Source: an uncultured Bacteroidaceae bacterium (GTDB lineage: Bacteria; Bacteroidota; Bacteroidia; Bacteroidales; Bacteroidaceae). From it: DNA of 64,000 nucleotides. Both the position numbers and the translations under genes were made by a program. Below, piece by piece: positions 6,416-64,000 of the stretch. Below the pieces are notes generated by a model. It worked only from the letters and a program-made list of their open reading frames with translations, did no database searches and had not been told where the DNA came from. The stretch is taken from positions 4,434-68,433 of the forward strand of contig CAJOJD010000003.1 of assembly GCA_905234745.1 (NCBI GenBank). Reading direction: 5' to 3'. The number at the start of each line of letters is the position of its first letter. Position 1 is the stretch's first letter.

Positions 6416-6448
6416 TTCAAGTGTAGCAATCATACATATTTGAAAATG

Positions 6449-6479
6449 AAGCCCAGCCGCGTTGCTGGGCTTTATTTTT
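6449..6479 (+). terminator. Rho-independent terminator after glyA
   Basis: A 9-bp stem (AAGCCCAGC/GCTGGGCTT) with a 6-nt loop, followed by TTTATTTTT. Confidence 0.6.
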
Positions 6480-6520
6480 AAATCGTAAAAATTTTATTTT
6501 GATAAATTCGCAATATAATT

Positions 6521-22338: not shown

Positions 22339-22353
22339 TTGACAGATACTTGA

Positions 22354-22396
22354 AATATGGCTCCGTTGAAGATTTCTTCGGAGCCATATTTTTTTG
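22354..22396 (+). terminator. Rho-independent terminator
   Basis: A 12-bp perfect stem (AATATGGCTCCG/CGGAGCCATATT) with a 13-nt loop and a T-run. Confidence 0.7.
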
Positions 22397-22416
22397 TAAA
22401 AAAGTTGGCAATTAGT

Positions 22417-36451: not shown

Positions 36452-37774
36452 ATGAAAGTATTGAAATTCGGCGGCACGTCAGTAGGAACCCCTGAGAGAA
36501 TGAAGGAGGTAAGCCGCCTTGTCACCCAAGACGGTGAGCAGAAGCTGGTAGTCCTGTCGGCCATGTCTGGCACCACCAATTCACTTGTAGAAATATCCCA
36601 GTACCTCTACGGAGGCAACAAGGCAGGCGCCGATGACGTAATCAACCGTCTGCGCACAAAGTACTATGCACACGTACCCGAGCTCCTCAGCAAGAAGGAA
36701 AACCAGGACGAACTGCAGAAATTCCTGGAAGATAAGTTCAACTATCTCCAGTCATTCTATATAGACAACTTTACCGAGAAAGAGGAAAAGATAATACTCG
36801 CCCAGGGTGAGCTTATCTCAACATACATGGTTACCTGCTACCTCAAGGAGCAGGGCATCAAGACCGCATTGCTGCCGGCTCTTGACTTCATGAAGACCAA
36901 TGCCGATGCCGAGCCTGACATGCAGTTCATAGCCGATAAGGCCGCTGCACAGCTCAAGGCTGTTCCAGGCATGCAGATATATATCACTCAGGGCTTTATC
37001 TGCCGCAACGTTCAGGGTGACATTGACAACCTGCAGCGCGGAGGCAGTGACTACACCGCATCAATCCTGGGTGCCGCCATCAAGGCCGACGAGATCCAGA
37101 TCTGGACCGACATTGACGGCATGCACAACAACGATCCCCGTGTAGTCGACAAGACCCAGCCCGTACGCCACCTCCACTTTGAGGAGGCAGCCGAGTTGGC
37201 ATACTTCGGAGCCAAGATACTCCACCCCACCTGCATTCAGCCTGCCAAGGCAGCCAACATATCCGTACGTCTGCTCAACACCATGGAGCCCACAGCTCCC
37301 GGCACTCTGATAGACAACCGTTCGGAGCCCGGCCGCATTGCAGCCGTAGCCGCCAAGGACAAGATCACCGCAATCAAGATCAAGTCCAGCCGAATGCTGT
37401 TGGCACACGGTTTCCTCAAGAAGGTATTCGAGGTGTTTGAGACCTACCGCACATCAATCGACATGATCTGCACATCCGAGGTGGGTGTTTCAATGTCAAT
37501 AGACAACACCAAGCATCTGGAGGAGATTGTGGCTGAACTCAAGAAATACGGCACGGTAACCGTCGACAGCGGCATGTGCATAGTATGCGTGGTCGGTGAC
37601 ATGGTTTGGGAGAACCTGGGATTCGAGTCACGCGCCATGGACGCCCTGGCCGATATCCCCGTACGAATGATATCATACGGAGGCAGCAACTACAACATTT
37701 CATTCCTCATCAGGGAGAGTGACAAGAAAGCCGCTTTGCAGCGCCTGAGCGATGTACTCTTCAACAACAAGTAA
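36452..37774 (+). CDS. lysC: Aspartate kinase
   Basis: 440 aa with the MKVLKFGGTSVG start, the RGGSDYTA motif and a C-terminal ACT-like region. Confidence 0.9.
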   Translation: MKVLKFGGTSVGTPERMKEVSRLVTQDGEQKLVVLSAMSGTTNSLVEISQYLYGGNKAGADDVINRLRTKYYAHVPELLSKKENQDELQKFLEDKFNYLQSFYIDNFTEKEEKIILAQGELISTYMVTCYLKEQGIKTALLPALDFMKTNADAEPDMQFIADKAAAQLKAVPGMQIYITQGFICRNVQGDIDNLQRGGSDYTASILGAAIKADEIQIWTDIDGMHNNDPRVVDKTQPVRHLHFEEAAELAYFGAKILHPTCIQPAKAANISVRLLNTMEPTAPGTLIDNRSEPGRIAAVAAKDKITAIKIKSSRMLLAHGFLKKVFEVFETYRTSIDMICTSEVGVSMSIDNTKHLEEIVAELKKYGTVTVDSGMCIVCVVGDMVWENLGFESRAMDALADIPVRMISYGGSNYNISFLIRESDKKAALQRLSDVLFNNK

Positions 37775-37778
37775 AAAG

Positions 37779-38903
37779 ATGCGCACACCATACTACCAGT
37801 ATGACCTGGGGATATTGGAGAATACCCTCAAGTCAATAGAAGAATGCGTAGGAGGCAATCCCGACTGGCACGTACACTACGCCATAAAGGCCAATGCCAA
37901 CCCCCTGCTGCTCAAGCACATCAACGAGTACGGTCTGGGCATAGACTGCGTCAGCGGCGGTGAGATCCAGGTTGCTTTGGACAACGGTTTCCCCGCATCA
38001 TCGATAGTATTCGCAGGCGTAGGCAAGGCCGATTGGGAGATAGATCTGGCACTTAATGCCGGAATAGCCTGCTTCAACGTGGAATCAGAGGCCGAGCTTG
38101 ACGTCATTGCAGAGCGTTGCGCCGCCTTGAACAAGACTGCACACATAGCACTCCGCGTCAACCCCGATGTCGATGCACATACACATGCCAACATAACCAC
38201 GGGAAAGGCCGAGAACAAGTTCGGAATAGAGATACCCATGCTTCTGCCCATAATCCGCAAGGCACAGCAGAATCCATGCTTTGTATTTGAGGGACTGCAT
38301 TTCCATATCGGCTCACAGATTCTTGATCTGGATCCGTTCCGCCTGCTCTGCCGGAAGGTAAATGACCTGCAGGATATGCTTGAGGCTGAAGGCATAAGAA
38401 TCAACAGCGTGAACGTAGGAGGCGGTCTTGGCGTTGACTATGTCAACCCCGAGCAGAACCCCGTTCCGGATTTCAAGCAATTCTTTGAAATATTCCGCAG
38501 TGACCTTAAGTTGCGTCCCGGACAGCAGCTCCACTTTGAGTTGGGCCGTGCCGTAGTGGCACAGTGCGGACGCCTTATAACCAAGGTCCTCTACGTCAAG
38601 CAGGGAACAATCAAGAAGTTCGCTATTGTTGACGCCGGATTCACAGAACTCATACGCCCCGCCCTTTACGGCGCACATCACAAGATAGTGAACCTGACCT
38701 CCAACGGTCCTCTCCAGAAGTATGATGTGGTAGGTCCCATATGCGAATCATCGGACATATTCGGAAAAGATGAAGTGCTACCGGAGGTTCACCGTGGTGA
38801 CCTGATAGCACTCATGTCTGCTGGGGCTTATGGGGAGGCTATGGCTTCTCAGTATAACTGCAGGGCTCTTCCTTCTTCCGGGTCTGACCCCTTTGCGTCA
38901 TAA
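37779..38903 (+). CDS. lysA: Diaminopimelate decarboxylase (C-terminus replaced by a repeat element)
   Basis: 374 aa from the ATG at 37779, 4 nt after the lysC stop. It has the YAIKAN PLP-lysine motif, HFHIGSQ, CESSD and GAYG. The last 8 codons and the stop lie inside the palindromic repeat at 38879..38933. Confidence 0.88.
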   Translation: MRTPYYQYDLGILENTLKSIEECVGGNPDWHVHYAIKANANPLLLKHINEYGLGIDCVSGGEIQVALDNGFPASSIVFAGVGKADWEIDLALNAGIACFNVESEAELDVIAERCAALNKTAHIALRVNPDVDAHTHANITTGKAENKFGIEIPMLLPIIRKAQQNPCFVFEGLHFHIGSQILDLDPFRLLCRKVNDLQDMLEAEGIRINSVNVGGGLGVDYVNPEQNPVPDFKQFFEIFRSDLKLRPGQQLHFELGRAVVAQCGRLITKVLYVKQGTIKKFAIVDAGFTELIRPALYGAHHKIVNLTSNGPLQKYDVVGPICESSDIFGKDEVLPEVHRGDLIALMSAGAYGEAMASQYNCRALPSSGSDPFAS

Positions 38904-38933
38904 CTTTGTTACGACGCAAAGGGGTCAGACCCG
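38879..38933. repeat. REP-like palindromic element (two GGGTCNGACCC cores forming a 21-bp perfect stem)
   Basis: CGGGTCTGACCCCTTTGCGTC (38879-38899) is the exact reverse complement of GACGCAAAGGGGTCAGACCCG (38913-38933), separated by a 13-nt spacer. It lies between the convergent lysA and the gene at 38944..40011. Confidence 0.85.
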
Positions 38934-57959: not shown

Positions 57960-59651
57960 ATGATAGATCACTACGACAGATCCGACAACGTCTTCACCGA
58001 GAAGAACCTGAATGCTTACATAGCCGGTTCCATAATCAAGAACTGGGACCTTGAGGCATTTACAGACTATAAAGGCGCTACCCTGCTCTACCGCGACGTA
58101 GCCCGCCGTGTTGCCAAGCTGCACATACTGTTTGACGAGGCCGGTCTGAAACCCGGTGACCGCATTGCTCTGTGCGGCAAGAACAGCTCCAACTGGGGCA
58201 CCGCCTGCATAGCAGCACTCACATACGGCGCTGTAGTGGTTCCTATCCTGCATGAGTTCAAGGCCGATAACATTCACCATATCATAAACCACTCCGAGAC
58301 CAAGCTCTTCTTTGCAGGAGACCAGATCTGGGAGAACCTGAACGAGGCCTCTATGCCCAACGTAGAGGGTATCATCACTCTTGATGAATACCAGCTGGTG
58401 ATTTCACGTAATGAGAAACTCACTTATGCACGCGAGCACCTGAACGAGCTGTTCGGACGCAAATACCCCAAGGAGTTCACCAAGAAGGATGTCAAGTATT
58501 ATGAGACCGGCTTTGATGATATGGCCATGATAAACTACACATCCGGATCGACAGGATTCTCAAAGGGTGTCATGCTGCCCTACCGCTCACTCATAAGCAA
58601 CCATCTGTTTGCCCAGAGAGCCCTGTACGTCATGAAATCAGGCGACAAGGTAATATCCATGCTCCCCATGGCTCACATGTACGGATTCGCATTCGAGTTC
58701 TTCCATGAGTTCCTGGAGGGTTGCCACGTATTCTTCCTGACCCGCCTGCCCAGCCCCAAGATCATATTCCAGGCTCTGGGTGAGATCAAGCCCATGCTTA
58801 TCGTATCAGTACCTCTGGTAATCGAGAAGATCATAAAGAAGAACATACTGCCCAAACTGGAAACTCCGTCCATGAAGCTCCTGCTCAAAGTGCCCATCGT
58901 GAACGACCAGATCAAGAAGAAGGTCTGCGATGAGATGATAAAGGGATTCGGAGGCAACTTCTACGAGGTAATCCTGGGTGGTGCTCCCTTCAATCAGGAA
59001 GTTGAGAGATTCATCTCATCCATACATTTCCCCTACACCGTGGGTTACGGTGCCACTGAGTGCGGTCCTATCATTGCTTATGATGACAAGACCACATTCG
59101 CTCCCGGATCATGCGGCAAGCCTGTTCCAAACATGGAGGTAAAGATCCTGAGTAACGATCCCGAGCATGTACCCGGTGAGATAATCTGCCGCGGCCCCAA
59201 CGTGATGCTTGGTTATTACAAGAACGAGAAACTGACCGAGGAGACCATCGATCCCGAAGGCTGGATGTATACCGGTGACCTGGGTATCATGGACAAGGAC
59301 GGCAACATATTCATAAAAGGCCGCAGCAAGAGCATGATTCTGGGTCCTTCAGGCCAGAACATCTATCCCGAGGAGATTGAGGATCACCTGAACAACATGA
59401 ATCTTGTAAACGAGTCAGTGGTTATCTCTGAGAGTGACAAGCTGGTTGCCCTGGTTTATCCCGACTTTGACGAGGCAATGAAGGCCGGTATGACCGATGA
59501 GCAGATTGCCGAGGTCATGGAGCAGAACCGCCAGGAGCTCAACAACATCCTGCCCGCCTACGAGAAGATCTCACAGATACGCATCTACCATGAGGAGTTT
59601 GAGAAGACTCCTAAGAAGAGTATCAAACGATTCCTCTATCAGAAAGAATAA
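57960..59651 (+). CDS. AMP-dependent synthetase/ligase (long-chain acyl-CoA synthetase-like)
   Basis: 563 aa with YTSGSTGFSKGV, GYGATE, YTGDLG and KGRSK motifs. Confidence 0.85.
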   Translation: MIDHYDRSDNVFTEKNLNAYIAGSIIKNWDLEAFTDYKGATLLYRDVARRVAKLHILFDEAGLKPGDRIALCGKNSSNWGTACIAALTYGAVVVPILHEFKADNIHHIINHSETKLFFAGDQIWENLNEASMPNVEGIITLDEYQLVISRNEKLTYAREHLNELFGRKYPKEFTKKDVKYYETGFDDMAMINYTSGSTGFSKGVMLPYRSLISNHLFAQRALYVMKSGDKVISMLPMAHMYGFAFEFFHEFLEGCHVFFLTRLPSPKIIFQALGEIKPMLIVSVPLVIEKIIKKNILPKLETPSMKLLLKVPIVNDQIKKKVCDEMIKGFGGNFYEVILGGAPFNQEVERFISSIHFPYTVGYGATECGPIIAYDDKTTFAPGSCGKPVPNMEVKILSNDPEHVPGEIICRGPNVMLGYYKNEKLTEETIDPEGWMYTGDLGIMDKDGNIFIKGRSKSMILGPSGQNIYPEEIEDHLNNMNLVNESVVISESDKLVALVYPDFDEAMKAGMTDEQIAEVMEQNRQELNNILPAYEKISQIRIYHEEFEKTPKKSIKRFLYQKE

Positions 59652-59695
59652 AAAAAGAGTACCATTGGGGTCAGACCCCAATGGTACTCTTTTTT
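59651..59695. repeat. REP-like perfect palindrome (22-bp arms around GGGGTC-A-GACCCC); probable bidirectional terminator
   Basis: AAAAAAGAGTACCATTGGGGTC A GACCCCAATGGTACTCTTTTTT. The A-run begins in the TAA of the plus-strand gene and the T-run ends in the stop of lepA. Confidence 0.85.
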
Positions 59696-61475
59696 AATCT
59701 AACTTCAGTACGGCCAGGAAGGCTTTCTGCGGAACCTCCACGTTGCCTATCTGTTTCATACGTTTCTTACCCTTCTTCTGCTTTTCCAGAAGTTTGCGCT
59801 TACGTGATACGTCACCGCCGTAGCACTTGGCGGTTACATCCTTACGCACCTGCTTGATGGTCTCACGTGCAATGATCTTGGAGCCGATAGCGGCCTGTAT
59901 TGCAATGTCAAACTGCTGGCGCGGTATGAGCTCCTTGAGTTTCTCGCACATGCGTCGGCCCAGGTCATAGGCATTATCCACGTGAGTAAGGGTTGACAGA
60001 GCATCTACCGGCTCTCCGTTAAGCAGAATATCCAGCTTGATAAGTTTTGAAGGACGGTATCCTGCGGGATGGTAATCGAATGATGCGTAACCCTTTGATA
60101 TGCTCTTGAGCTTGTCGTAGAAGTCAATCACAATCTCACCCAGAGGCAGCTTGAAGTATATCTCCACACGGTTACCCGCAATGAACTGCTGCTTTACCAG
60201 TTCTCCGCGCTTATCAAGGCACAGAGTCATGATGGGGCCGATGTAATCGGTCGTGGTAATTATCGATGCGTCTATGTAAGGCTCTTCAATATGGTCAATC
60301 AGAGTAAGGTCAGGCATACCGCTGGGGTTGTGCACCTCGGTCGCGTTACCCTGCTTGTCATAAACCATGTAAGATACGTTGGGCACGGTCGTAATAACGC
60401 TCATGTCAAACTCGCGGTCCAGACGCTCCTGCACAATCTCCATGTGGAGCAGTCCCAGGAATCCGCAACGGAATCCGAATCCGAGCGCTGCCGATGACTC
60501 AGGGAAGAAACTCAGCGAAGCATCGTTCAGCTGCAGTTTTTCAAGCGATGCACGCAGGTCCTCAAACTCATCGGCCTCAATGGGATAAACGCCGGCGAAC
60601 ACCATCGGCTTGGACTCCTCGAATCCGGCAATGGCGCTGCTGCAGGGACGGGCAACGTGGGTAATGGTATCGCCCACCTTGACCTCGGTCGATGTCTTGA
60701 TTCCGGATATGATGTAGCCCACATCACCTGTAGTCATCACGTCACGCGGCACCATATCCATTCGGAGCACGCCTACCTCATCGGCATCATACTCCTTGCC
60801 GGTATTGAAGAACTTTACCTTGTCACCCTTGCGGATTGAGCCGTTCTCTATCTTGAAATATGCTATGATTCCGCGGAAAGAATTAAATACGGAATCAAAG
60901 ATAAGTGCCTGGAGCGGGGCATCGGGATCACCTACCGGATGCGGGATGCGCTCCACGATTGCGTTCAGGATATCCTCAACACCCATTCCCGTACGGGCCG
61001 ATGCGCGGATAATCTCCTCACGCTTGCAGCCCAGAAGTTCGATTATCTCATCCTCAACCTCATCGGGCATGGCGCTCTGCATATCGCACTTGTTTATGAC
61101 CGGGATGATCTCCAGGTCATGGTCAATGGCCATGTAGAGGTTGCTGATGGTCTGGGCCTGGACGCCCTGAGTGGCATCGACCACCAGGATTGCACCCTCG
61201 CAAGCGGCGATTGATCGGCTTACCTCATATGAGAAATCCACGTGTCCCGGAGTGTCAATAAGGTTCAGGATGTATTTCTGACCCTTGTACTCATACTCCA
61301 TCTGTATGGCGTGGCTCTTGATTGTGATGCCGCGCTCCTTCTCCAGGTCCATGTCGTCAAGCATCTGTCCCTCGGTGATGTTTATGGTATGAGTATACTC
61401 CAGCAAGCGGTCAGCCAATGTTGACTTACCGTGATCAATATGAGCAATTATGCAAAAGTTGCGGATGTTCTCCAT
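59694..61475 (-). CDS. lepA: Translation elongation factor 4
   Basis: 593 aa with [18 protein letters not shown] and DTPGHVDF. The overall pattern is LepA-specific. Confidence 0.95.
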
Positions 61476-61494
61476 AGGGGGTGTTTTTACGCCG

Positions 61495-61502
61495 CAAAAT
61501 TA
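61495..61502 (-). promoter_or_regulatory. Candidate -7 box (TAATTTTG on minus strand) for lepA
   Basis: Plus-strand CAAAATTA lies 19 nt upstream of the ATG at 61475. Confidence 0.35.
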
Positions 61503-61506
61503 ATAA

Positions 61507-61547
61507 AAAAATGGCACATTGGGGTCAGACCCTTCTGTGCCATTTTT
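61507..61547. repeat. Degenerate REP-like palindrome with GGGTCAGACCC core; probable terminator of the 61561..63087 gene
   Basis: AAAAATGGCACA/TGTGCCATTTTT outer arms, an internal 2-3-nt mismatch and a central GGGTC-A-GACCC. It shares CATTGGGGTCAGACCC with the 59651 element. Confidence 0.7.
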
Positions 61548-61560
61548 GCAAACAAGGCAA

Positions 61561-63087
61561 TCAGAGTTGGACTACTGTGGCTTTGGGAACCTGACGCAGG
61601 ATATCGGCCTTCTGCTCGTCGGTCATGGGGGCCTTGATGGTCAGGCTCTCCATTTTATTTTTACGGTACCATTCGCCCAGGTCCTGCGGAACGGTTATGG
61701 GCTTTAGAGAGAGGAACACATTATTCTTATAGTGTAGTTCATTAGGATGTTTAACTAACATCGGGACATCAGGAAATCCTATGTAATACCATGTATCGGT
61801 AGAGCCAAATACTGAATAAATATCGGTCATGGTAATCCACTTCTTTCCGTCACCGTACTCATTCAGGAACTCCACCTCACGGGGTTCCAGTTTACCCATA
61901 TCCAGGCCGGAACCAATCTTTTCACGCATCATCCAGCTCATGACGGGTTTGAGCGAATGGTTTTCCCAATCCATCTCCATACCGATGAATCCGGCCCAAA
62001 GTTCAAGATTATGGGTTTCCTCATGATCGGGCCAGGTCATGACGTACTTGACATCGACCTTCTTTATCTCCGAGCAGACCTTTGTGTTGTGGGTAACGAT
62101 ACTTGGAGTGCGTACCACATGAAGCGGGCCTTCAAACCCGTTCTCTTCTTCACAGTACGGGAAAAATACCGTAAACCAACCGTTGTATTGCGCAGGAACT
62201 GTGCGGGGACCGCCGCAACCACCACTGCCGGCTCTGGCCGGAGAATATTGCTGAACCATATCAAGCCAGAACTTACGGTTTATATCTCCCTGGGATGCAT
62301 TCACGAACTCGTCAAGAACGGGTTCCAGTTTCTCACGCCACCATCCCAGTTCCAGAACATCAAGTCTCTTGATGCGCGAACGTATCTCCTTCCAGTCATC
62401 GGGAGTACCCAGCAGAGTGATATCCGGAATACCGCATCCCATTAAATGAACTACATATTTAAAGTATTTCTTGACGCTCTCCATCATGGTTATCTGTGAT
62501 GTAATGCGTTCAACCGTACCCGTTGTGCTGAAATTGCAGACCATCAGGTCAGAGAACCGTGCATTCATATTCCTGTCTATAGAGTCGCTGAATGCCTGTA
62601 TTATCCAGTTCCAGTCCTCCTCATGCTCAAACACATCCCTTAAGGTCGTTACAACAAGCTCTTTCTGACCATCAAAATCCACCAGACGGTCACGCAGATC
62701 CTCGGCATTATGATTTATATGAGTCGATATTCCCTGACTGATAAGCAGCCATATCATATCGGGCGACAGGACCAACGAGTAATGATTGTCAAAAGCTGTG
62801 AGGAAACCTTCAAAGCAGGCGTTGCGATCAAAGCATACAAGTTTAGTGTCACCTGCGCTGTGAGTCTTGATATTTGCGTTCGATGATGATATCCCGGATT
62901 CGCTGAGTATCTTTTCCCAGCACTGCTTTCCCGATATCTGAGTCAAAGGTATTTCGGGTGCATCCTTGTCTTCAATATGGAACTTAATTCCACCGTTCTC
63001 TAACCTTGTTACTTGCTCGTTGTTTTTTTTGGCAAATGCCACATTTACACATATAAGTGAAATGATGATAATGACTAGCTTTTTCAT
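61561..63087 (-). CDS. Secreted DUF4419-like protein
   Basis: 508 aa with a signal peptide. The segment AFDNHYSLVLSPDMIWLLISQGISTHINHNAEDLRDRLVDFDGQKELVV matches my recollection of the DUF4419 signature. Function is unknown. Confidence 0.45.
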   Translation of the reverse strand: MKKLVIIIISLICVNVAFAKKNNEQVTRLENGGIKFHIEDKDAPEIPLTQISGKQCWEKILSESGISSSNANIKTHSAGDTKLVCFDRNACFEGFLTAFDNHYSLVLSPDMIWLLISQGISTHINHNAEDLRDRLVDFDGQKELVVTTLRDVFEHEEDWNWIIQAFSDSIDRNMNARFSDLMVCNFSTTGTVERITSQITMMESVKKYFKYVVHLMGCGIPDITLLGTPDDWKEIRSRIKRLDVLELGWWREKLEPVLDEFVNASQGDINRKFWLDMVQQYSPARAGSGGCGGPRTVPAQYNGWFTVFFPYCEEENGFEGPLHVVRTPSIVTHNTKVCSEIKKVDVKYVMTWPDHEETHNLELWAGFIGMEMDWENHSLKPVMSWMMREKIGSGLDMGKLEPREVEFLNEYGDGKKWITMTDIYSVFGSTDTWYYIGFPDVPMLVKHPNELHYKNNVFLSLKPITVPQDLGEWYRKNKMESLTIKAPMTDEQKADILRQVPKATVVQL

Positions 63088-63156: not shown

Positions 63157-63201
63157 GCGTTGCATTACTGTTGCATTTTTTTTGCAACGTTTTTGCAACG
63201 C
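63157..63201. repeat. Nested inverted repeats of a TGCAAC half-site
   Basis: GCGTTGCA (63157-64), GTTGCA (63170-75), a T8 run, TGCAAC (63183-88) and TGCAACGC (63194-63201). Confidence 0.7.
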
Positions 63202-63270
63202 ACACAATAGGGTCAGACCCCTTTGTGTCATTTGAAAATGACACAAAGGGGTCTGACCCTATTGTGTGCG
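63199..63270. repeat. Long REP-like hairpin (about 35-bp arms, two GGGTCNGACCC cores)
   Basis: CGCACACAATAGGGTCAGACCCCTTTGTGTCATTT pairs with AAATGACACAAAGGGGTCTGACCCTATTGTGTGCG. It starts 2 nt after the stop of the uxuB-like gene. Confidence 0.85.
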
Positions 63271-63272
63271 CC

Positions 63273-64000
63273 TTAGCGGGCTTGGACGTACTTGTGCAGG
63301 GTCTTGCGAACGGCGCCGGGACCGGCGTAGAGTTCCTTGACCATACCCTCTATGCGCTCGCCAAGGCCTGCCTCATACAGGTCAACGGCAAATACATCCT
63401 TGCGGCTGTAGAGCTTCTTTAGGCATGAGTAGTCCTGATCAGGTTTGCCAACCTCAAGGGGAGCTACGATTGCCTGCATTTCGGCCAGCAGCGGATCTGG
63501 TGAAGGATCAAACGGTGTGCCGTCATCCTTTATGCCCTTGAGATAGCGTGCCCAGCCGGCAAGTGCCAGAGGTATGAGCACCAGGTTATCCATGTCAAGG
63601 CCACGTGCTATGTATTTCTTTATGGTCTCACCAAAACGGATTGGAATCTTCTGGCTGGTATCGCATGCTATGCGTTGAGGTGCATCGGGCATGAACGGGT
63701 TGGGCAGACGGCGGTTGATTACGGCGCCGATGAACTCATACGGGTTCAGGATTCCGGGATCAACCACTACCGGCATGGCCTCCATGTAACCCATCTTCTG
63801 GATGAAGGGACGGATATCCTCATCGGCCATCTCGGCACTGATAAGGGTGTAGCCCAGCATGCAGCCGTAGATGGCCATTGCGGTATGCAAGGGGTTGAGG
63901 CAGGTGGTTACCTTCATGGTCTCAACCTTATCCACAGTTTCACGTGTGGTGTAGAGGGCACCGCCCAAATCCAACGGTGGACGGCCGTTCGTGTAGTTGT
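63273..64000 (-). CDS. Mannitol-dehydrogenase-family oxidoreductase (UxuB/UxaB-like), C-terminal part; 5' end beyond window
   Basis: The reading frame stays open to the window edge. The sequence ...LNPLHTAMAIYGCMLGY...RLPNPFMPDAPQRIACDTSQKIPIRFGETI... is typical of the Mannitol_dh_C domain. Confidence 0.7.
   Translation of the reverse strand, partial: NYTNGRPPLDLGGALYTTRETVDKVETMKVTTCLNPLHTAMAIYGCMLGYTLISAEMADEDIRPFIQKMGYMEAMPVVVDPGILNPYEFIGAVINRRLPNPFMPDAPQRIACDTSQKIPIRFGETIKKYIARGLDMDNLVLIPLALAGWARYLKGIKDDGTPFDPSPDPLLAEMQAIVAPLEVGKPDQDYSCLKKLYSRKDVFAVDLYEAGLGERIEGMVKELYAGPGAVRKTLHKYVQAR

Follow-up and report, generated by a model that had tools for sequence, protein, structure and literature searches.

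What is a perfect palindrome doing in the space between two convergent stop codons, and why does its core recur a short distance away? The question is raised by positions 59651-59695 of a stretch of 64,000 nucleotides (hereafter the window; C3:4434-68433, contig CAJOJD010000003.1) of the draft assembly GCA_905234745.1 of an uncultured Bacteroidaceae bacterium (2.2 Mb in 115 contigs, ~80 % complete, 50 % G+C). The element, AAAAAAGAGTACCATTGGGGTCAGACCCCAATGGTACTCTTTTTT, is a perfect palindrome of 45 nt (22+1+22), centred on A59673, and overlaps by 1-2 nt the stop codons of an AMP-binding-domain gene (TAA 59649-59651, + strand) and of lepA (TAA 59694-59696, - strand; both labels from Pfam). RNA folding is predicted to yield -33 kcal/mol for each of the two strands, and both transcripts have a U tract. 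Six copies of its core, GGGTCNGACCC, are present in the window (38880, 38922, 59668, 61522, 63210 and 63249), while 0.06 copies are expected from dinucleotide-preserving shuffles and six or more were reached in 0 of 100 shuffles. An earlier reading of these letters alone (the sequence-only reading) had reported six GGGTC-N-GACCC cores at four loci and a perfect 45-nt palindrome between convergent stops; a recount gave the same six cores and four loci, and the palindrome was verified with the small overlap noted above. With a probability of roughly 0.85, these palindromes are non-autonomous, non-coding hairpins of the repetitive extragenic palindromic (REP) type, present as singles or as inverted pairs (REPINs) and copied to new sites by REP-associated tyrosine transposase (RAYT)-like HUH/Y1 transposases encoded elsewhere in the genome.

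In the whole draft, 146 exact GGGTCNGACCC cores were counted, against ~2 expected from length alone. Together they make up 112 elements, namely 78 single hairpins and 34 inverted doublets of fixed spacing. Variants of the core with one mismatch number only 45, of which 33 lie inside genes, as would background matches. Analysis of the half-sites separated the units into subfamilies. In subfamily A (60 units; AAAAAGAGTACCATTGGGGTCWGACCCCAATGGTACTCTTTTT), GTACCATTGGGGTC is usually set within AAAAAGAG...CTCTTTTT. In subfamily B (63 units; TGACACAAAGGGGTCWGACCCTATTGTGTCA), GACACAAAGGGGTC is paired with GACACA(A/T)T(A/G)GGGTC, giving an imperfect stem with a constant mismatch. Subfamily C is a minor doublet type with GACGCAAAG arms. 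An A half-site is never joined to a B half-site in one unit, and a few units combine a C-type half with an A or a B half. The cores are spaced ~43 nt apart in A-A doublets and mostly 36-39 nt in B-B doublets; 12 pure B-B doublets were found genome-wide, 18 if all B-type doublets are taken. The most frequent 31-mer has 11 copies, and further families with other cores are present in the same genome, such as GGGGTCGTT (53 copies) and GGGGACGGTTC (40 copies). The genome-wide count and flank alignment proposed in the sequence-only reading thus yielded a high copy number, common flanks and distinct subfamilies. At C26:5096 and 5230, two type A units bracket a short stretch resembling a minus-strand tRNA gene.

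The elements are strongly biased towards the 3' ends of genes. Gene calls were crude ORF (open reading frame) and codon-bias predictions (1702 genes, 87 % coding), in which a few "genic" cases reflect over-extended starts. On these calls, 134 of the 146 cores (92 %) lie outside predicted genes (binomial p ~1e-103 versus 13 % non-coding). The elements are divided 48:48:5 over the spacers of convergent, tandem and divergent gene pairs, while 17.8:60.4:22.8 is expected from intergenic length (chi-square p = 2e-15); the enrichment at 3' ends for which the sequence-only reading had suggested a test is therefore pronounced. An element with the GGGTCNGACCC core occupies 45 of the 199 convergent junctions (23 %), and 62 (31 %) do so when the related families are included.

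A Pfam search of the genome revealed three Y1_Tnp genes of ~265 aa, one of them cut by the end of contig C35, the others at C31:21751-22548 and C65:9428-10222. The proteins carry the motifs NHVH, FQxRF and YIHQNP, of which N-H-x-H and Y..NP are invariant, and Y1_Tnp scores of 42 and 36 bits were obtained, over the cut-off of 23. A PDB search with one of the sequences gave no match; with a profile of 12 RAYT sequences, the best solved structure was E. coli TnpA-REP (4ER8; E = 5e-7). In one of the two proteins scanned, a C-terminal HTH_23 domain was detected at 22.7 bits (E = 8e-5), under the gathering threshold of 24.6; the other was without a match. The repeats flank these genes. A type A doublet contains the end of the C35 gene, the TGA of which is located in the outer arm of the unit; the 5' side of the gene is lost at the contig end, so that its flanks are seen 3' only. 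The C31 gene is bracketed by TGACGCAAAGGGGTCGTTTCG-type units, which belong to the GGGGTCGTT family of ~53 copies, and its orthologue in the closest relative (G051) has the same flanks. The C65 gene is bracketed by GGGCAAATTGGGGACG.CGTCCCCAATTTGCCC, a family of only 2 copies, while the RAYT of the GGGGACGGTTC family is present in sister species and absent from this ~80 %-complete assembly. For the C35 gene, 12 orthologues from sister species (80-100 % identity) were compared: hairpins stand on both sides of seven, and one more has a doublet ~1.4 kb downstream. The hairpin cores beside these orthologues co-vary on both halves (GGGGTC/GACCCC, GGGGAC/GTCCCC and mixed forms), and the other RAYT paralogue clades of the genus each have their own hairpin family. 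The sequence-only reading had advised a search for a RAYT/IS200-like transposase, which thus turned up Y1 genes flanked by the repeats themselves; its view of a dispersed REP/BIME (bacterial interspersed mosaic element)-like family, rather than of independently converged terminators, is borne out by the copy number, the 3'-end bias and these RAYT genes. In the NCBI record "Bacteroidales bacterium UBA1182" (G042, L147 ~2290-2320), which belongs to the genus, a RAYT gene runs into the downstream REP unit; its stop is a TGA within the core (GGGGTC-TGA-CCCC), and the protein ends in ...RAIGV.

The repeats and the genes also occur together across species. Sixty species genomes of the genus were searched. 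The motif GGGGTCWGACCCC was found in 11 of the 24 sister species sampled, at 2-52 copies, and was absent from the other 13 and from the 16 genomes that represented further families of the order. A RAYT of at least 47 % identity was present in 9 of the 11 motif-positive and in none of the 13 motif-free genomes (Fisher p = 4e-5, a value that ignores relatedness and the incompleteness of metagenome-assembled genomes, MAGs); one motif-free genome has a RAYT relative of 39 % identity. This co-occurrence of motif and gene, together with the gain and loss of elements between species described below, lends indirect support to mobilisation by the RAYT. In the mechanism that we propose, the enzyme would recognise the folded hairpin on single-stranded DNA. 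Its conserved part would be the tip, CA(A/T)(A/T)G-GGGTC-W-GACCC, the outer stem varying by subfamily and lineage. Copies would survive mainly at 3' ends since insertion would be least harmful there. As the ends of B units carry TGA/TCA, an in-frame gene running into one would stop at once; subfamily A, with A and T tracts of its own, has the shape of a bidirectional intrinsic terminator.

The relation of the elements to stop codons is a close one. Near subfamily B elements, 66 gene ends were found at a distance of up to 80 nt. In 40 of them, exactly 13 nt lie between the core centre and the final base of the stop, which thus spans -15 to -13 and reads T(G/A)(A/G) ahead of CACAAAG. A further 12 ORFs run into a B element and stop inside or past it. 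TGA is found at 26 of the 40 unit ends used as a stop and also at 34 of the 64 unused ends, and it therefore belongs to the consensus of the B element itself, TGACAC...GTGTCA. The possibility that the stop triplet at B units is always derived from the host was rejected as a general rule, as TGA is present at most ends that do not serve as stops. At units of subfamily A, it is the A-rich outer arm that contains the stop, in the form TAAAAAGAGTACC or AAAATAGTACC. Some copies are translated: at C14:23769-23799, an in-frame B unit inside a predicted gene of 653 aa adds ~NSTKGSDPNVS, while the orthologue in the closest relative has ordinary coding sequence at this position.

Comparison with that relative showed how few of the elements are kept in place. 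Of the 112 elements, 84 were compared, with 37 junctions having both flanks. The same element is retained at four of these and one unit of a doublet at a fifth. The remaining 32 junctions differ: nine have a different REP variant or family in the relative, six have an ordinary hairpin-plus-T-tract terminator, the 59651-59695 junction among them, and 17 have neither REP nor terminator. In nine of the closest species (88-93 % identity), the 59651-59695 junction consists of TAAtcAAAAAGGTCGCTCggttGAGCGACCTTTTTTAatc, an ordinary bidirectional terminator, the tracts of which differ from the A and T tracts of the element; in other species, the site is taken up by a doublet whose cores are GGGGACAGACCCC, by elements of the GGGGACGGTTC type or by longer inserts. 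The 17 junctions with neither REP nor terminator include clean gains; three of these are without target duplication and have a flank identity of 93-95 % in one case and 87-96 % in two. Judged from these alignments, the junctions are hot spots of fast turnover.

At some junctions, the element appears to have been exchanged for what lay there before. One has TAAAAAAGAG-CCCCGCGGGG-CTCTTTTTTA in the relative, and in the present genome the same tracts with a type A doublet replacing the 10-nt stem. At another, TGA-ttaaataa-TCA in the relative corresponds to TGA[CACATTAGGGTCAGACCCCTTTGTG]TCA here, and at a third TAA-gc-CTA corresponds to TAG[doublet]CTA. Such cases favour a variant of the REP/RAYT reading in which insertion is aimed at stop codons or at existing palindromes (terminator stems, TGA...TCA pairs), the hairpin being swapped in. 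The fixed register to stops would be accounted for, as would the change of the second junction to TGA[CAC..GTG]TCA and that of the third to TAG[..]CTA, the terminator tracts retained around the doublet at the first, and the presence of different REP families at one junction in different species. Many clean empty sites, however, are neither palindromic nor at stops, the element has TGA at its own end also where no gene stops on it, and the tracts at 59651 differ from the ancestral ones, which fits insertion beside an old terminator followed by deletion. Purifying selection combined with a deletion bias could also yield the same picture. We therefore hold aimed insertion to be quite unlikely. 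A strict requirement for a palindromic target was likewise tried as an explanation and set aside, since many of the clean empty sites are not palindromic; it was kept only as part of this improbable variant. The junction pattern would thus reflect either aimed insertion, to which a low probability is given, or insertion beside an old terminator and subsequent loss of the redundant DNA, which might proceed, for instance, if runs of A or T allowed the DNA between them to be deleted and compact spacers were favoured by selection.

A number of observations weigh against copying by RAYT-like enzymes, with or without aiming. Elements often replace everything between two stops, and plain cut-or-copy-and-paste would then need later deletions. 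The elements at 59651, 61507 and 63199 are also carried by three other assemblies of the same species (99.8-100 % identity). No RAYT with subfamily B flanks was found in the ~80 %-complete assembly; the nearest candidate is a paralogue in the closest relative that is flanked by B-like GCACACAGTAGGGACAGTCCCCTTTGTGTGC and has no orthologue in this assembly. The proteins score 53 bits with the NCBIfam model REP_Tyr_transpos, under its cut-off of 80. Unlike classical REPs, moreover, the hairpins are without a 5' GT[AG]G tag, and it is the tip that is conserved, not the foot: the feet are TGACAC in subfamily B and A-rich in subfamily A (GAGTACC/TGATACC/TAGTACC), with no GTAG or GTGG consensus.

If the hairpins were sites for a dimeric DNA-binding protein, or DNA uptake signals such as the DNA uptake sequences (DUS) and uptake signal sequences (USS) of other bacteria, they would be kept by selection. 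In favour of this, compensatory changes are found on both halves of the dyad, and the RAYT-like proteins have a putative C-terminal helix-turn-helix (HTH)-like region. The uptake sequences of Neisseria (DUS) and Haemophilus (USS) are likewise enriched in terminators. Sites under selection are hard to reconcile with the rapid turnover of orthologous site occupancy, with several families per genome that are each tied to their own RAYT paralogue, and with the doublet (REPIN) architecture. To our knowledge, no link to competence is known for this order, and none was looked for here. Selected sites of either kind are accordingly very unlikely.

The elements are also short, palindromic, numerous and non-coding, as are the miniature inverted-repeat transposable elements (MITEs) of DDE-type insertion sequences, which have terminal inverted repeats (TIRs) and a target-site duplication and depend on a conventional transposase. 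No target-site duplication was seen at the clean pairs of filled and empty sites, though, the units are single hairpins of ~31-43 nt instead of TIR-bounded segments, and the only linked genes are of the Y1/HUH type, making a MITE origin highly improbable. Finally, that there is no mobile family here, and that intrinsic terminators arrived independently at a G+C-rich GGGTC/GACCC stem, is scarcely credible: the hairpin-plus-T-tract form of type A and its siting where relatives have terminators would fit, but stretches of 31-43 nt are identical at many loci with the outer stems included, B and C doublets are without T tracts, copies stand in frame inside genes, the same sequences bracket RAYT genes, and the core is lacking in the motif-free sister species and the other families of the order mentioned above.

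The copying of REP-type hairpins by RAYT-like enzymes leaves room for a terminator role of some of the copies. The ordinary terminators of this genome consist of a hairpin plus a T tract; since two such sites are present in the window, at 6440-6480 and 22350-22400, the organism uses canonical intrinsic terminators. Both are unrelated to the repeats, in agreement with the sequence-only reading, which had placed ordinary hairpins at 6449 and 22354. Among the single units of subfamily A, 29 of 43 have A and T tracts (>=5 A upstream and >=5 T downstream), and type A units fold with ~-33 kcal/mol on either strand. Because of these tracts, and of their position where relatives have ordinary terminators, the co-option as bidirectional terminators that the sequence-only reading held probable is plausible for subfamily A, and for this subfamily only; at several junctions, A units would have taken over from ordinary terminators. 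B and C doublets fold with -50 to -70 kcal/mol and are without a T tract, and they are not canonical terminators. At C2:216366-216470, the units of a GACGCA-armed doublet stand on either side of an ordinary bidirectional terminator that has A and T tracts (GGTTGGAAgaaaTTCCAACC); every unit begins at a stop codon here, and the whole layout is also kept in the closest relative.

The three other loci in the window (none with a strand assigned) illustrate the different forms. The element at 38880-38932 is an inverted doublet of subfamily C with GACGCAAAG arms, consisting of GGGTCTGACCCCTTTGCGTC, a spacer of 13 nt and GACGCAAAGGGGTCAGACCC; it folds with -50 to -55 kcal/mol and is without a T tract. 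The gene lysA (37752-38903) runs into it, so that the left arm encodes the last 8 codons (tail SGSDPFAS) and the TAA at 38901-38903 falls in the spacer. In the closest relative, the site is without the element and LysA has a different tail. At 61507-61547, a single imperfect unit with A and T tracts and B-like arms, AAAAAAATGGCACATTGGGGTCAGACCCTTCTGTGCCATTTTT, is located 13 nt downstream of the stop of a DUF4419 gene (61561-63087, - strand) and upstream of lepA (fold -21 to -23 kcal/mol). In the assembly of the closest relative, the end of C3 and the start of C24 adjoin the orthologous site (window ~61400-61500), and no GGGTCNGACCC core is present there; repeats of this kind probably break these assemblies. 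The element at 63199-63270 is a REPIN-like inverted doublet of subfamily B, in which two ACACAATAGGGTCAGACCCCTTTGTGTCA units in head-to-head orientation are separated by a spacer of 7 nt. Between its end and the stop (63273-63275) of a gene of the mannitol dehydrogenase family on the - strand, 2 nt are left; the doublet folds with -67 to -70 kcal/mol, again without a T tract. The partly common flanks that had been noticed in two pairs of loci were found as quoted: CATTGGGGTCAGACCC is shared by the loci at 59651 and 61507, and GACCCCTTTG(C/T)GTCAT by those at 38880 and 63210. The clustering of the four loci at 38.9-63.3 kb is nothing special, the genome mean being ~1 core per 15 kb. An Rfam scan of the window at gathering thresholds matched only a tRNA.

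The sequence-only reading knew of no described equivalent. Such equivalents do exist: the system is of the REP/REPIN-RAYT kind, and the nearest published class is that of the TIRtrons and their TIRYT proteins, with the repeat motif GGGGWSAS (PMC3733652; PMC6006769). The kind is thus known, whereas the host lineage is little described. As in the REP/BIME and REPIN-RAYT systems of Enterobacteria and Pseudomonas (TnpA-REP/YafM, 4ER8; P. fluorescens; PMC3116915, PMC3337134), the repeats are short imperfect palindromes with ~100-plus extragenic copies, which occur as singlets and inverted doublets and are over-represented at 3' ends and at the junctions of convergent genes. A gene of the Y1/HUH type is bracketed by its own repeats, several paralogues each have their own family, and the families are patchy and lineage-specific in both cases. 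Apart from the missing tag, the differences from the classical systems are that the protein is ~100 aa longer, with a putative C-terminal HTH-like region, and reaches 4ER8 by profile only, and that one subfamily contains A and T tracts of its own.

Di Nocera et al. (2013; PMC3733652) described TIRtrons as encoding long RAYT-like proteins, the TIRYTs, with flanking inverted repeats that contain GGGGWSAS; they were treated as equivalent to TnpAY1 subclass 2.1 by Quentin et al. (2018; PMC6006769). The present proteins are likewise long and RAYT-like, TIRYT tails being HTH_23-, HTH_28- or DnaA_C-like. Of the repeats, GGGGTCAG (subfamilies A, B and C) and the GGGGACAG of sister species fit GGGGWSAS, while the GGGGTCGT and GGGGACGG families do not. 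Some families of TIRtron repeats are also dispersed as singles, dimers or clusters. The flanks of TIRtrons have, however, been called TIRs of low to moderate copy number (PMC3733652; PMC6006769), no REP-like hairpins were found beside subclass 2.1 genes by Quentin et al. (PMC6006769), and in Group 1 of Bertels et al., the flanking 16-mers have only ~12 copies genome-wide (PMC5581495). In the present genome, the flanks are self-complementary hairpins with 146 cores, and together with the related families they account for the 31 % of convergent junctions given above. YIHQNP and the host phylum also fit the Bacteroidetes subclass 2.6, for which "atypical secondary structures" are mentioned (PMC6006769); on motifs (NHVH, FQ, YIHQNP), length and host phylum, the proteins could belong to TnpAY1 subclass 2.1 or 2.6. 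The stop-codon habit has a precedent in GTAG REPs (PMC3733652), in which an adjoining gene takes its stop from the end of the element and some copies are read in frame as coding sequence; in contrast to these, the triplet here, mostly TGA but sometimes TAG or TAA, has a fixed position at -15 to -13 from the core centre and is found at both ends of a palindromic unit. Like the DUS pairs and Correia elements of Neisseria that act as terminators, the repeats would provide the stem of many terminators, but the link is to RAYT genes and not to DNA uptake. When the full text of the literature was searched for the core, written as DNA or as RNA, nothing but primers and unrelated sequences came up, and neither PMC6006769 nor PMC3733652 has the core in its supplements.

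The core extends beyond the order. A scan for CAWWGGGGTCWGACCCYWWTG in one genome per species (596 Gb) gave at least 113 stretches, with ~35-70 chance matches expected, and only matches that were multi-copy, had an extended palindrome or were linked to a RAYT were used. The matches listed include Bacillota (Faecalicatena, Muricomes, Eubacterium MAGs, Tissierellaceae) and Actinomycetota (Gaiellales, Iamiaceae, Thermoleophilia and others), as well as Bacteroidota, Pseudomonadota and other phyla. Most of those listed are multi-copy and extend outward as lineage-specific palindromes. At 11-16 nt from the centre, beyond the search pattern, 44-62 % of the 145 non-redundant units among the matches listed have complementary bases, where chance would give 25 %, and each of the four pair types is represented at these outer positions. 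The core was found in the flanks of RAYT homologues in an Iamiaceae, a Eubacterium, a Thermoleophilia and a Tissierellaceae MAG, and in a Muricomes MAG a unit directly abuts the 3' end of the RAYT homologue. In Faecalicatena and Muricomes (Lachnospiraceae), the core is also embedded in far longer palindromes, AATATTCTGAAAATGG....CAAAGGGGTCWGACCCCTTTG....CCATTTTCAGAATATT, and in tandem core pairs; the longer palindromes may constitute a larger composite element. A bolder reading, which we consider tentative and on balance unlikely, is that a clade of HTH-tailed, TIRYT-like RAYTs and the GGGGWC-W-GWCCCC tip travelled together through at least three phyla (Bacteroidota, Bacillota, Actinomycetota) and that, in this genus, the hairpins are more than tolerated at gene ends: they would have stop codons and terminator stems as their targets, which they overwrite, acting as portable "stop codon plus terminator" cassettes. 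If that were true, the hairpins would be a main source of 3'-end architecture, at 23-31 % of convergent junctions.

In conclusion, a conspicuous repeat of uncultured Bacteroidales of the rumen and gut is explained as a REP-type hairpin, which may help to avoid its mis-annotation. Genes take stop codons from the hairpins, and some proteins gain short tails that contain GSDP; the hairpins also probably break assemblies and may stand in for terminators. Where published surveys describe no REP-like hairpins, or modest "TIR" families, beside long RAYT-like genes with an HTH tail, populations as large as those of classical REPs are present here. Of modest interest are the size of the hairpin population, the terminator form built into it, the fixed register to stop codons and a core that is found across phyla. 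With its many filled, empty and replaced junctions, the genus offers material for the study of how REPs choose and remodel their sites, a matter that is still unsettled.

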